Assembly (NCBI RefSeq): GCF_054482525.1
Contig: NZ_CM137006.1
Strand: one strand, 5' to 3'
DNA length: 64,000 bases
Position numbers and translations under genes: made by a program. The notes beneath the pieces were generated by a model. That model worked only from the letters and a program-made list of their open reading frames with translations, was not told the DNA's origin and ran no database searches. This document shows, in pieces, positions 11,123 to 34,668 of this stretch. The first letter of the stretch is position 1; each line of letters begins with the position of its first letter.

Positions 11123-11692
11123 ATGAAACGACTCATTGTAGGCATCAGCGGTGCCAGCGGCGCGATTTATGGCGTGCGCTTATTACAGGTTCTGCGCGAT
11201 GTCGCAGATGTTGAAACGCATCTGGTGATGAGCCAGGCCGCGCGCCAGACCTTATCCCTCGAAACGGATTTTTCCCTGCGCGAAGTGCAGGCATTAGCCG
11301 ATGTGACGCACGATGCGCGCGATATTGCTGCCAGCATTTCTTCCGGTTCTTTCCAGACACTGGGGATGGTGATTTTACCCTGTTCAATCAAAACCCTGTC
11401 CGGCATTGTCCATAGCTATACTGATGGCTTACTGACCCGTGCGGCAGATGTTGTGCTGAAAGAGCGTCGCCCGCTGGTGCTCTGCGTGCGTGAAACACCA
11501 TTGCACTTAGGCCATCTGCGTTTAATGACCCAGGCGGCAGAAATCGGTGCGGTGATTATGCCTCCCGTTCCGGCGTTTTATCATCGCCCGCAATCCCTTG
11601 ATGATGTGATAAATCAGACGGTTAACCGTGTACTCGATCAATTCACCATAACGCTTCCTGAAGATCTCTTTGCCCGCTGGCAGGGCGCATAA
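11123..11692 (+). CDS. ubiX: Flavin prenyltransferase UbiX
   Basis: 189 aa; MKRLIVGISGASGAIYG flavoprotein fold motif; downstream of purF. Confidence 0.95.
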   Translation: MKRLIVGISGASGAIYGVRLLQVLRDVADVETHLVMSQAARQTLSLETDFSLREVQALADVTHDARDIAASISSGSFQTLGMVILPCSIKTLSGIVHSYTDGLLTRAADVVLKERRPLVLCVRETPLHLGHLRLMTQAAEIGAVIMPPVPAFYHRPQSLDDVINQTVNRVLDQFTITLPEDLFARWQGA

Positions 11693-11700
11693 CCTCATTG

Positions 11701-11724
11701 TTGCCCTGTTTCAGGGCAATTTTG
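11701..11724 (+). terminator. Intrinsic terminator downstream of ubiX
   Basis: TTGCCCTG-TTTC-AGGGCAA hairpin followed by TTTTGC, 9 nt after the ubiX stop. Confidence 0.55.
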
Positions 11725-11872
11725 CAACCGCGATCAAATCCTCGACATTTTGTTCCTTTCGATGAATCGAAACGCTGCGATTCAACCGCCATACCTGCTA
11801 TCTTCAACTTTAGGACAATAATGCAACGTCTTATTAACATATTTAACGTTGAATGTTACTGTTGTCGTAAAG

Positions 11873-11890
11873 ATGGCATAAGACCTGCAT
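11873..11890 (+). promoter_or_regulatory. Candidate sigma54 (-24/-12) promoter of argT
   Basis: TGGCAT-N5-CTGCAT with GG at 11875-11876 and GC at 11887-11888 (correct 11-nt register), about 70 nt upstream of the argT ATG; argT is known to be under Ntr control. Confidence 0.55.
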
Positions 11891-11957
11891 GAAAGAGCCT
11901 GCAAACACACAACACAATACACAACATAAAAAAGCCATTTTCACTTGAGGGTTATGT

Positions 11958-12740
11958 ATGAAGAAGTCGATTCTCGCTCTGTCTTTGTTAGTCGGTCTCT
12001 CTGCAGCGGCTTCCAGCTATGCGGCGCTACCGGAGACGGTACGTATCGGAACCGATACCACCTATGCGCCGTTCTCATCGAAAGATGCCAAAGGTGACTT
12101 TGTTGGCTTTGATATCGATCTCGGTAACGAGATGTGCAAACGGATGCAGGTGAAATGTACCTGGGTTGCCAGTGACTTTGACGCGCTGATCCCCTCACTG
12201 AAAGCGAAAAAAATCGACGCCATTATTTCGTCGCTCTCCATTACCGATAAACGTCAGCAGGAGATTGCTTTCTCCGACAAGTTGTACGCCGCAGATTCTC
12301 GTTTGATTGCCGCCAAAGGTTCGCCGATTCAGCCAACGCTGGATTCACTGAAAGGTAAACATGTGGGTGTGCTGCAGGGATCAACCCAGGAAGCTTACGC
12401 TAACGAGACCTGGCGTAGCAAAGGCGTGGATGTGGTGGCCTATGCCAACCAGGATTTGGTCTATTCCGATCTGGCTGCAGGACGTCTGGATGCTGCGTTA
12501 CAAGATGAAGTTGCTGCCAGCGAAGGATTCCTCAAGCAACCTGCTGGTAAAGATTTCGCCTTTGCTGGCTCATCAGTGAAAGACAAAAAATACTTCGGTG
12601 ACGGCACCGGTGTAGGGCTACGTAAAGATGATGCGGAACTGACGGCTGCCTTCAATAAGGCGCTTGGCGAGCTGCGTCAGGACGGCACCTACGACAAGAT
12701 GGCGAAAAAGTATTTTGACTTTAATGTCTACGGTGACTGA
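11958..12740 (+). CDS. argT: Lysine/arginine/ornithine-binding periplasmic protein
   Basis: 260 aa with signal peptide ([22 protein letters not shown]); paralogue of the downstream hisJ. Confidence 0.95.
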
Positions 12741-12799
12741 TACGTCGCAGGGAAGCTGTACCTGATGGAATGATCATCATGGTGCACGCCAGGTTTGTT

Positions 12800-12816
12800 G
12801 CACTATCGTGGTGCAT
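12800..12816 (+). promoter_or_regulatory. Candidate NtrC-binding site upstream of hisJ
   Basis: TGCACT-ATCGT-GGTGCA matches the NtrC consensus TGCACC-N5-GGTGCA at 11 of 12 positions; a TGGCAC -24-like element lies about 100 bp downstream (12898-12903) but its -12 region reads GT rather than GC. Confidence 0.45.
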
Positions 12817-12960
12817 TGAAATGCATACTTAAGCATTTTTAATGAAAAATAATACGTCTAACGGGGCGGGATATTTTGCCTTGATGGTCAATTTTATGGC
12901 ACGATAAGTGTAACAAACCTGTAAATATTCCCTATAAAAAGACTGTCAGTTGAGGACATT

Positions 12961-13743
12961 ATGAAAAAACTGGTGCTATCGCTCTCTCTGGTTCTGGCCT
13001 TCTCCAGCGCAACTGCGGCGTTTGCTGCGATTCCGCAAAACATCCGCATCGGTACCGATCCGACCTATGCGCCATTTGAATCAAAAAATTCACAAGGTGA
13101 ACTGGTTGGCTTCGATATCGATCTGGCAAAGGAGTTGTGCAAACGCATCAATACGCAATGTACGTTTGTCGAAAACCCACTGGATGCGTTAATCCCGTCC
13201 TTAAAAGCGAAGAAGATTGACGCCATCATGTCATCGCTTTCCATTACGGAAAAACGTCAGCAAGAAATAGCCTTCACCGACAAACTGTACGCTGCCGATT
13301 CTCGTCTGGTGGTGGCGAAAAATTCCGACATTCAGCCGACAGTCGAGTCGCTGAAAGGCAAGCGGGTAGGCGTATTGCAGGGCACCACCCAGGAGACGTT
13401 CGGTAATGAACACTGGGCACCAAAAGGCATTGAAATCGTCTCGTATCAGGGGCAGGACAACATTTATTCTGACCTGACTGCCGGACGTATTGATGCCGCG
13501 TTCCAGGATGAGGTCGCTGCCAGCGAAGGTTTCCTCAAGCAGCCAGTCGGTAAAGATTACAAATTCGGTGGCCCGTCTGTTAAAGATGAAAAACTGTTTG
13601 GCGTAGGGACCGGCATGGGCCTGCGTAAAGAAGATAACGAACTGCGCGAGGCACTGAACAAAGCCTTTGCCGAAATGCGCGCTGACGGTACTTACGAGAA
13701 ATTAGCGAAAAAGTACTTCGATTTTGATGTTTATGGTGGTTAA
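12961..13743 (+). CDS. hisJ: Histidine-binding periplasmic protein
   Basis: 260 aa with signal peptide; high similarity to argT; first gene of hisJQMP. Confidence 0.95.
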
Positions 13744-13832
13744 TCGCCATCGGTGAAAGAAAGCCCGCTCCCTTCGGGTAACCGGAGGGAGACAAGAGGC
13801 GGTAATTCACCACACACGACAGGACAGGCTGC

Positions 13833-14519
13833 ATGTTGTATGGGTTTTCAGGTGTTATTTTACAGGGTGCGCTCGTCACGCTGGAGCTGGCTATCAGCTC
13901 TGTAGTGCTCGCCGTAATCATCGGTTTAATTGGCGCTGGCGGTAAGCTCTCGCAAAATCGGCTTTCGGGCCTTATTTTCGAAGGCTACACCACGCTGATT
14001 CGTGGCGTGCCGGACTTGGTGTTGATGCTGCTGATTTTCTACGGTTTGCAGATTGCACTAAACACGGTGACGGAGGCGATGGGCGTCGGGCAGATTGATA
14101 TTGATCCGATGGTCGCAGGTATTATCACTCTCGGTTTTATCTACGGTGCTTACTTTACCGAAACGTTCCGTGGCGCGTTTATGGCTGTGCCGAAAGGACA
14201 TATAGAAGCGGCGACGGCGTTCGGTTTTACTCGTGGGCAAGTGTTTCGGCGGATCATGTTTCCGGCGATGATGCGTTACGCCCTGCCAGGCATTGGCAAC
14301 AACTGGCAGGTGATCCTTAAATCTACCGCACTGGTTTCGTTACTTGGCCTGGAAGATGTGGTCAAAGCCACGCAGCTGGCAGGCAAAAGTACCTGGGAAC
14401 CGTTCTATTTCGCCATCGTTTGTGGCGTGATTTACCTGGTTTTCACCACCGTTTCCAATGGTGTGCTGCTGTTCCTTGAGCGCCGCTACTCCGTGGGTGT
14501 GAAGAGGGCTGACCTGTGA
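13833..14519 (+). CDS. hisQ: Histidine ABC transporter permease HisQ
   Basis: 228 aa polytopic membrane ORF with ABC permease EAA-like loop. Confidence 0.95.
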   Translation: MLYGFSGVILQGALVTLELAISSVVLAVIIGLIGAGGKLSQNRLSGLIFEGYTTLIRGVPDLVLMLLIFYGLQIALNTVTEAMGVGQIDIDPMVAGIITLGFIYGAYFTETFRGAFMAVPKGHIEAATAFGFTRGQVFRRIMFPAMMRYALPGIGNNWQVILKSTALVSLLGLEDVVKATQLAGKSTWEPFYFAIVCGVIYLVFTTVSNGVLLFLERRYSVGVKRADL

Positions 14520-34121: not shown

Positions 34122-34668
34122 AGTAAAAAGCCTTCCTCGTATCGTGCAGAACGTACAAAACTGTTCATTTTTCAATCACCAGAGATTCACGTCCCGAACG
34201 CACAAATAATCGCCTGAAAAAAATCACCTGCTACAATGATGTTAAAAAATACGTAAATTTGTTGCTGCGTTTTTGTTATGGAATGACAAAAGCGTGTCAC
34301 AGATCAAGAAAATACTCTCTTTTGGGGGGAGGAATCGACACAAATTCCTGTCAAAATAGACCCGTATTTTTTCCATTGCTTCACAACGGACACGATTCAA
34401 CAACATCTAATTATCCTGGAGTCGTCAAGGATCTGGGGTGAAAGGGCATTAAATGCTAATGGTGTTGATATTATGTAAACTAATGTGAAGAAACTTTTGT
34501 TAAAGTTGACAAAAGGTTATAGAAAGGAGTAAAAGACCACATCAATTAGCTGTATAAAAGAGTTTCTACAGTGATTGTAAGGTTTTTTTTATTCCTCCCC
34601 ATGAATCGATGTGGCGTCCATCTGCCGTGAAGAGCAGTGAATCTGGCGCTACTTTTGATGAGTAAGCA
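34122..34668 (+). promoter_or_regulatory. nuo operon promoter / leader region
   Basis: 547-bp AT-rich non-coding tract upstream of nuoA; contains a perfect TTGACA at 34506-34511; the nuo control region is known to be complex, but individual sites were not mapped here. Confidence 0.4.

Follow-up and report, generated by a model that had tools for sequence, protein, structure and literature searches.

The window analysed here is the whole 64,000-nucleotide stretch from contig NZ_CM137006.1 (assembly GCF_054482525.1), and a 1.5-kb stretch of it around the motifs upstream of hisJ was 100% identical to the chromosome of Escherichia coli PCN033. The open reading frames and the RefSeq annotation of PCN033 gave the gene order ubiX, argT, hisJ, hisQMP, all on the + strand, and placed the argT coding sequence, for the lysine/arginine/ornithine-binding protein, at 11958-12740 (+). 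The hisJ coding sequence follows at 12961-13743 (+), with a Shine-Dalgarno sequence GAGGA at 12952-12956, so that the two genes are separated by a spacer of 220 bp (12741-12960). This spacer is a densely packed control region that has been characterised previously. It differed at one or two bases, every one of them outside the motifs discussed below, from the corresponding spacers of a K-12-like strain (a single difference), ATCC 25922 and ERL05-0623, and 5137 of 5421 complete E. coli genomes carry it with at least 99% identity. Because the spacer is near-identical across E. coli strains, data obtained with K-12 transfer directly to the window. Published positions were converted with the relation U00096.2 coordinate = 2437771 minus window coordinate, which was verified with the centre of the argT sigma54 motif and with the annotation of NC_000913.3.

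A near-consensus site for NtrC had been proposed in the spacer by a first-pass annotation made from the sequence alone. The palindrome TGCACTATCGTGGTGCA, of the form TGCACT-N5-GGTGCA, was indeed present, although it occupies 12799-12815 rather than 12800-12816, and a recount confirmed that it matches the NtrC (GlnG) consensus TGCACC-N5-GGTGCA at 11 of 12 positions. It also matches 13 of the 14 positions of the longer consensus TGCACCAnnnTGGTGCA, as quoted in PMC8743547. Comparison with background put the site far above chance: no other site in the 64-kb window has one mismatch or fewer to TGCACC-N5-GGTGCA, and the pattern TGCACY-N5-GGTGCA occurred in 0 of 100 dinucleotide shuffles. ChIP-seq of NtrC in nitrogen-starved K-12 revealed a 23.7-fold peak (peak 12, 2424941-2425021) that was assigned to hisJQMP (PMC4066584). 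Converted to window coordinates, this peak covers 12750-12830 and lies directly over the palindrome; the argT peak of the same study was 5.4-fold and had been added manually. These data establish 12799-12815 as a genuine NtrC site to which the regulator binds in E. coli during nitrogen starvation, and one that was documented before. The argT-hisJ spacer was absent from the list of targets obtained by NtrC gSELEX, a screen that recovered only 7 known targets.

The centre of the palindrome is 91 bp from the GG of the sigma54-like box considered below, at -105 relative to the sigma70 start at 12912 and at -116 relative to a predicted sigma54 start near 12923. Within the Escherichia spacer it is the single NtrC-like site with three or fewer mismatches, whereas relatives carry two or three such sites. 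As read from the letters, TGTACC at 12757-12762 and GGTGCA at 12781-12786 may be weak additional NtrC half-sites (12757-12786). At the equivalent positions, approximately 29-42 bp upstream of the main site, other genera have NtrC-like 17-mers with two or three mismatches.

Transcription of hisJ starts at an A at position 12912 (+), which leaves a leader of 49 nucleotides. A genome-wide table of transcription starts (PMC3415461) contains a single hisJ start, at U00096.2 2424859 on the minus strand, with the upstream sequence ...TTTTGCCTTGATGGTCAATTTTATGGCACGATAAGTGTA; the published start-site data were from nitrogen-replete media. Upstream of this start lies a sigma70 promoter with an extended -10 element (12897-12905, +), made up of TG at 12897-12898 (-15/-14) and CACGAT at 12900-12905 (-12 to -7), and a -35 hexamer TTGCCT at 12876-12881 (+; -36 to -31), separated from the -10 by 18 bp. 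The -10 hexamer has the characteristic A (-11) and T (-7), TG precedes it at -15/-14, and the distance to the -35 hexamer is within 16-18 bp, as in extended -10 promoters. Mutations selected during laboratory evolution fall in the same promoter. One promoter-up mutation is a 1-nucleotide deletion 78 bp before the hisJ ATG, at window position 12883 in the sigma70 spacer, which it would shorten from 18 to 17 bp; in a second, independent study a recurrent promoter-up SNP lies 86 bp before the ATG, at window position 12875, abutting the -35 hexamer. hisJQMP has been described as transcribed from a sigma70 promoter, with ArgR binding to a pair of ARG boxes that lie 17 bp before the -35 (PMC6640053). 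We found these boxes as the tandem AATGCATACTTAAGCATT-TTT-AATGAAAAATAATACGTC at 12820-12858, two 18-bp boxes 3 bp apart with 4 mismatches each to WNTGAATWWWWATTCANW. They form the best tandem match in the spacer and the second best in the window, and they end exactly 17 bp before TTGCCT, as published. A simple sigma70 consensus scan of 11650-13000 returned no promoter, PhisJ being too weak for its thresholds. Together, these data show that hisJ is transcribed from a sigma70 promoter that starts at 12912 and is modulated by the ArgR boxes at 12820-12858.

The same DNA also resembles a sigma54 promoter. The sigma54-like element ATGGCACGATAAGTGTA (12896-12912, +) has the GG of the -24 region, and its core TGGCACGATAAGTGTA spans 12897-12912, with GG at 12898-12899 and GT at 12910-12911. 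The heptamer TGGCACG, proposed as a -24 box at 12898-12904, is present one position earlier, at 12897-12903, and the observation that the -12 element reads GT instead of GC was correct, as can be read in TGGCACGATAAGTGTA. Candidate elements were scored with a log-odds matrix built from 135 E. coli sigma54 sites defined by ChIP-seq (PMC4591121). ATGGCACGATAAGTGTA scored 11.04 bits and ranked 16th among 127,968 window positions; it outscored only 9 of the 135 real sites and fell below the other 126, whose overall set has a median of 14.2. Thirteen of the 15 higher-scoring window positions are inside genes, and only one of the 15, the argT promoter, is a high-stringency sigma54 site in the corresponding K-12 interval. 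The first-pass annotation had offered a score no better than genomic background as grounds for giving up its reading, and by score alone the hisJ box (11.04 bits, rank 16) stood at just that level. A search for the sigma54 pattern by mismatches to the consensus was uninformative, with 106 matches against 129 expected. The -12 position that is C in 125 of the 135 bound sites is T in 4, which include the confirmed promoters pspA and pspG (TTGTA), and the hydN promoter of Salmonella, TGGCACGATTCGTGTA, has GTGTA and is strongly bound by sigma54. Since GT also occurs at these real sites, sequence by itself is insufficient to dismiss the element.

Data on sigma54 binding, on the other hand, give the box no support as a working promoter. 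ChIP-seq of sigma54 in E. coli grown in nitrogen-replete media identified no hisJ site among either 135 high-stringency or 149 low-stringency sites, and in vitro gSELEX with RpoN, with or without NtrC, gave a peak solely in the ubiX/argT spacer and none at hisJ. The Salmonella orthologue of the box, TGGCACGATAGTCGCATC, is footnoted as 'not an active promoter' in PMC3844500, where Ames & Nikaido 1985 is cited for the statement; in the main text and the other supplementary files accessible for that paper, hisJ (STM2354) is absent apart from the PSSM training list. The mapped start moreover gives TGGCAC a different role. TGGCAC lies at -15 to -10 relative to 12912, so the proposed -24 box is the extended -10 of the sigma70 promoter, and the start itself falls inside the putative sigma54 -12 element. 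The mapped start, the ChIP-seq and gSELEX results and the footnoted inactivity of the Salmonella orthologue all point the same way, and a functional -24 role for TGGCACG is not supported. The most plausible view is that the box belongs to the established sigma70 promoter PhisJ and is also the degenerate counterpart of a sigma54 promoter in related bacteria. The first-pass annotation had asked whether hisJ has a non-canonical sigma54 promoter or NtrC acts on a sigma70 promoter here; published work has largely dealt with this for Salmonella, and has done so indirectly for E. coli.

To place the Escherichia element among its relatives, we compared 80 hisJ loci, one per species of Enterobacteriaceae, and aligned the upstream 240 nucleotides of 40 of them. 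ATGGCAC(G/A)(A/T)TA was nearly invariant in the alignment. Column counts were made on 73 loci anchored on GGCA(C/T): the G of the -12 element was kept in 62 of 73 species and its C likewise in 62 of 73, while the positions of the sigma70 -35 TTGCCT were conserved in 53-63 of 73. As both the -12 GC and the -35 are widely kept, both types of promoter appear to be ancestral and overlapping. In many genera the orthologous element is a canonical sigma54 element of 14-18 bits with CTGCA, CTGCT, CTGCC or GTGCT at -12 (most Citrobacter, Kluyvera, Klebsiella oxytoca/michiganensis, Franconibacter, Buttiauxella, Pseudocitrobacter and Mangrovibacter). The Salmonella element is intermediate (CCGCA, 11.5 bits), and the Escherichia element has GTGTA and 10.9 bits in 5 of 5 genomes (three E. 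coli-type, E. albertii and one cryptic-clade isolate). Restoring C at 12911 would raise the E. coli score by approximately 4.8 bits, as computed from the matrix counts. The C residues of GGCAC depart from the sigma54 consensus and yet do not vary, possibly because sigma54 still constrains them, although the search pattern itself fixed these columns.

NtrC-like dyads were found upstream of the element in nearly all genera, commonly approximately 140, 110 and 88 bp before the GG, and a site approximately 85-112 bp before the GG is present in most of the Enterobacteriaceae examined. The strong Escherichia dyad stands at 91 bp because approximately 20 bp of the sequence found in other genera are missing, and it is this missing segment that carries the promoter-proximal NtrC site in those genera. 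From the alignment we infer that, in the ancestor of Enterobacteriaceae, a sigma70 and a sigma54 promoter probably overlapped here and had NtrC sites at the distance of enhancers. In the Escherichia lineage the C of the -12 GC was probably replaced by a T that became fixed, which would have lowered the score from approximately 15.7 to 11 bits.

The spacer also contains a long, Escherichia-specific inverted repeat. Its left arm, CAGGTTTGTTGCACTATCGTG (12790-12810), overlaps the left half of the NtrC palindrome; its right arm, CACGATAAGTGTAACAAACCTG (12900-12921), covers the sigma70 -10, the GT of the '-12' and the transcription start. The two motifs flagged in the first-pass annotation are thus complementary arms, with 21 pairs, one bulge and one G-T (G-U) position, and this G-T position is exactly the position of the C-to-T difference at -12. 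The 15-nucleotide core of the repeat is 93% complementary, and a comparable repeat arose in 2 of 300 dinucleotide shuffles. As RNA, the arms have a duplex energy of -31.5 kcal/mol, and the spacer folds at -76.8 kcal/mol compared with -51.3 +/- 4.8 in shuffles (z = -5.3). Complementarity of the arms gave z = -5.8 to -7.8 in five Escherichia genomes; in Citrobacter it was weaker (z about -3.5), with a different upstream partner, and it was absent in most other genera. Left-arm differences within Escherichia amount to two C-to-T changes (E. albertii and clade E1V33), and both keep G-U pairing. Variation within E. coli is too low for an analysis of hairpin covariation, identity being at least 99% in 95% of genomes. 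An Rfam scan of 11600-13900 at E <= 1 returned no RNA family. The right arm was also considered as a second NtrC site overlapping the promoter and was rejected, having 6 mismatches and one degenerate in-register half-site (TACAC). The repeat could serve in the processing or stability of RNA, or be the mere trace of a templated inverted duplication.

A clearer sigma54 promoter lies upstream of argT. The argT sigma54 promoter ATGGCATAAGACCTGCA, with a -24 GG and a -12 GC, lies at 11873-11889 (+), essentially where it had been annotated (11873-11890), scores 13.9 bits (rank 4) and is identical to site OS22 of the K-12 sigma54 ChIP-seq study (PMC4591121). It was kept at 12.5-16.5 bits in all 34 species examined. 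NtrC-like sites are found at -195/-165 of argTp in Enterobacter, K. pneumoniae, Raoultella, Cedecea, Shimwellia and others, whereas in Escherichia, Salmonella and most Citrobacter the 320 bp before argTp contain no NtrC-like site with at most three mismatches. Between argT and hisJ, a terminator scan of the spacer found nothing convincing, the only candidate being a 5-pair hairpin at 12855-12868, and several groups treat argT-hisJQMP as one operon.

These observations are fitted best by a third alternative that the first-pass annotation had not raised, namely that nitrogen control reaches hisJQMP mainly by read-through from the sigma54 promoter of argT, with PhisJ serving as a sigma70 promoter under ArgR and the NtrC site of the spacer being retained. 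We give this reading a probability of roughly 55%. In nitrogen limitation, NtrC-P would activate the canonical argT sigma54 promoter, and transcription from argTp would continue through the terminator-less spacer into hisJQMP. The NtrC site in the spacer would be a retained enhancer, used for argTp, which lies 0.9 kb upstream of it, and/or for residual weak sigma54 initiation near 12923. That it may act on argTp is suggested by the lack of upstream argT sites in Escherichia and by an NtrC signal that is much stronger at the spacer than at argT. An argTp-lacZ fusion placed ectopically at the lac locus still responded 2.4-fold to deletion of glnK, which indicates that argTp does not strictly need the downstream NtrC site. 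The weak NtrC ChIP peak over argTp was considered as evidence of looping and set aside: called peaks lie mostly within approximately 100 bp of a sigma54 motif, and since NtrC peaks are generally near such motifs, their resolution is insufficient to show looping.

It is also conceivable that hisJ keeps a weak, non-canonical sigma54 promoter with a start near 12923, activated by NtrC-P at 12799-12815, possibly with bending of the DNA by ArgR bound between enhancer and promoter, and that its closed complex is too unstable, or too occluded by sigma70 polymerase, to be seen by ChIP or gSELEX. The geometry is that of a textbook enhancer, with the GG 91 bp away and a centre at about -116 from the predicted start, around an NtrC site that is strongly bound and highly conserved, and most relatives have a canonical sigma54 promoter at the orthologous position. 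GT at -12 does occur in real sigma54 promoters, as in pspA, pspG and, with the same GTGTA, Salmonella hydN, and 11.0 bits is within the range of bound sites (minimum 6.8, 5th percentile 10.05). The negative data, furthermore, all come from nitrogen-replete cells or from binding in vitro. What makes the proposal doubtful, if still a serious one, is that three genome-wide data sets contain zero sigma54 signal here, that the sole mapped start is the sigma70 start at 12912, that the GC-bearing Salmonella version is reported inactive in PMC3844500, and that only argT, among the 15 window positions with higher scores, is a high-stringency site. Direct action of NtrC at 12799-12815 on the sigma70 hisJ promoter, as activator or as repressor, would agree with the sigma70 promoter being the only one demonstrated at hisJ and with the binding of NtrC nearby. 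We nevertheless found no support for it and consider it very improbable, since a site centred at -105 is too far upstream for occlusion of polymerase and NtrC has been described as an activator of sigma54 promoters exclusively. In the known cases of repression by NtrC, at glnAp1 and glnLp, the sites overlap the promoter.

A further explanation takes the flagged motifs to be mainly the arms of the 21-bp inverted repeat, which in argT read-through RNA would form a long hairpin (12790-12921) with a role in processing, stability or insulation, the resemblance of the right arm to a sigma54 box being a by-product. The sigma70 mRNA begins within the right arm, so both arms would be present only in read-through RNA. 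Such a hairpin would account for the folding of the spacer RNA (z = -5.3), the rarity of the core (2 of 300 shuffles), the duplex energy of -31.5 kcal/mol, the complementarity in 5 of 5 Escherichia genomes (z = -5.8 to -7.8) and the preservation of G-U pairing by the two left-arm C-to-T differences. Those five sequences are related, however, and their two changes are one-sided, so that they show no compensatory covariation in the strict sense; in many genera folding scores at this place are inflated by palindromic NtrC sites, the repeat matches no Rfam family, and templated inverted duplication could generate it without function. We therefore regard a hairpin as the main explanation of the motifs as improbable, though less so than direct action of NtrC on the sigma70 promoter.

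Read-through from argTp remains our preferred source of nitrogen control. A broader synthesis can be put forward around it, in which hisJ of Escherichia has a decayed dual sigma70/sigma54 promoter whose sigma54 half would have been silenced by a fixed C-to-T change at -12; its NtrC enhancer would have survived with a new function, such as acting on argTp from downstream, and the lineage-specific 21-bp inverted repeat, which links enhancer and promoter, would form a long hairpin only in argT read-through RNA, so that nitrogen-induced hisJQMP transcripts would differ in 5' structure from sigma70 transcripts. Taken as a whole this synthesis is speculative and rather unlikely to hold in every part; we would rank it below a weak sigma54 promoter at hisJ and above the hairpin as main explanation. 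For annotation, the pairing of the NtrC site with the sigma54 box at E. coli hisJ should not be entered as a sigma54 promoter, because the box coincides with the sigma70 extended -10 and no occupancy by sigma54 has been reported there. The finding is chiefly one of housekeeping and is largely already known. Of modest evolutionary interest is that Escherichia lost the -12 GC and kept a strongly bound NtrC site, while most Enterobacteriaceae keep both the -35 and the GC, a natural example of decay in overlapping two-sigma promoters and of an enhancer outliving its nearest promoter. The comparative and inverted-repeat observations are a modest lead: should the enhancer prove to serve argTp from downstream, or the repeat to process read-through RNA, textbook nitrogen control of the histidine/LAO permease would be refined.

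The NtrC site at hisJ closely resembles the enhancers of glnAp2-type promoters, including the site upstream of Salmonella hisJ. It is the same kind of 17-bp dyad, agrees with TGCACCAnnnTGGTGCA in 13 of 14 positions, is occupied in nitrogen-starved K-12, and is likewise situated approximately 100 bp upstream of an element of the -24/-12 type; in S. enterica subsp. diarizonae the position of the E. coli palindrome is taken by a perfect TGCACCATTTTGGTGCA. Unlike those enhancers, that of Escherichia has a partner element without GC and with no reported sigma54 occupancy, and consists of one strong dyad where relatives have up to three. The partner element shares the architecture TGGCAC-N-(T/G)TGTA with pspA, pspG and Salmonella hydN, and differs from hydN (TGGCACGATTCGTGTA) in spacer bases only; those three promoters are bound by sigma54 in ChIP, whereas the hisJ element is not listed as bound. 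The sharing of DNA between a sigma54 -24/-12 and a sigma70 -35/-10 is the same as at Salmonella glmY/glmZ (PMC3844500). Because the elements share DNA, the two holoenzymes would compete, and repression of sigma70 promoters by sigma54 has been described (PMC4551910). Both promoters are documented as active at glmY/glmZ. For hisJ, in contrast, documentation is confined to the sigma70 start, and in Escherichia the -12 C of the sigma54 half is gone. With the ArgR-controlled PhisJ (Caldara et al. 2007, summarised in PMC6640053) no difference was detected. The weak sigma70 promoter and the spacing of the ARG boxes are the same, and the promoter in the window is the PhisJ element in another strain of E. 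coli.

The 220-bp spacer between argT and hisJ proved to be strongly conserved among 5421 E. coli genomes, 95% of which carry window positions 12730-12975 at 99% identity or higher. Most genomes match the surrounding 1.5-kb stretch that includes argT (11600-13100) at 95-99% identity, so that the coding DNA on either side is less conserved than the non-coding spacer. RNA folding of the spacer gave a z-score of -5.3. Positions 12790-12810 and 12900-12921 form the arms of a 21-bp interrupted inverted repeat, which pairs the region of the NtrC site with that of the hisJ -10 element and start. In each of the five Escherichia genomes examined the repeat is strong; most other genera have a weak version or none. 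The sole G-T position of the repeat coincides with the 'degenerate' -12 base of the hisJ sigma54-like element.

Scanning the window with the sigma54 matrix gave the three highest-scoring matches (14.5-16.0 bits) at 52785-52801 (elaD), 59585-59601 (menB) and 55257-55273 (menF), all intragenic; elaD is a frameshifted pseudogene in PCN033. Because the E. coli sigma54 sites listed from ChIP-seq in PMC4591121 include none of the three, score alone is a poor predictor of sigma54 binding. A further sigma54-like site, CTGGCGCTACTTTTGAT (34643-34659, 11.8 bits), lies in the sense orientation 10-26 bp 5' of the nuoA start codon. This match was not found among the published high-stringency E. coli sigma54 sites and is probably due to chance.

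A published start-site table (PMC3415461) places an argT transcription start, with 303 reads, at window position 11812 (U00096.2 2425959), 146 nt 5' of the ATG. This start lies approximately 60 bp upstream of the argT sigma54 promoter (11873-11889), so that argT is also transcribed from a sigma70-type start under nitrogen-replete conditions. The annotation of an E. coli ATCC 25922 assembly (locus L003, 859-1641) lists argT as a pseudogene interrupted by an internal stop; hisJ and the argT-hisJ spacer are intact in this assembly.

Immediately 3' of ubiX, and followed by T-rich sequence, is the hairpin TGCCCTGTTTCAGGGCA (11702-11718), which from its sequence looks like the ubiX terminator. The position of the hairpin matches that of an NtrC-like site in other genera (approximately -165 from the argT GG). 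Counted by hand, it departs from the NtrC dyad at four positions, and it could be a remnant weak NtrC site.

Among the hisJ loci of Enterobacteriaceae (L009-L084), a third NtrC-like dyad, proximal to the promoter, occurs in many genera at approximately 85-90 bp 5' of the hisJ GG, for example TGCACAAAAGTGGTGCA in Pseudocitrobacter and TGCACCATTCTGGCGCA in Phytobacter. The segment of approximately 20 bp that bears this dyad is missing from Escherichia. A loss of this length amounts to about two helical turns and would leave the phasing of the remaining Escherichia NtrC site preserved.
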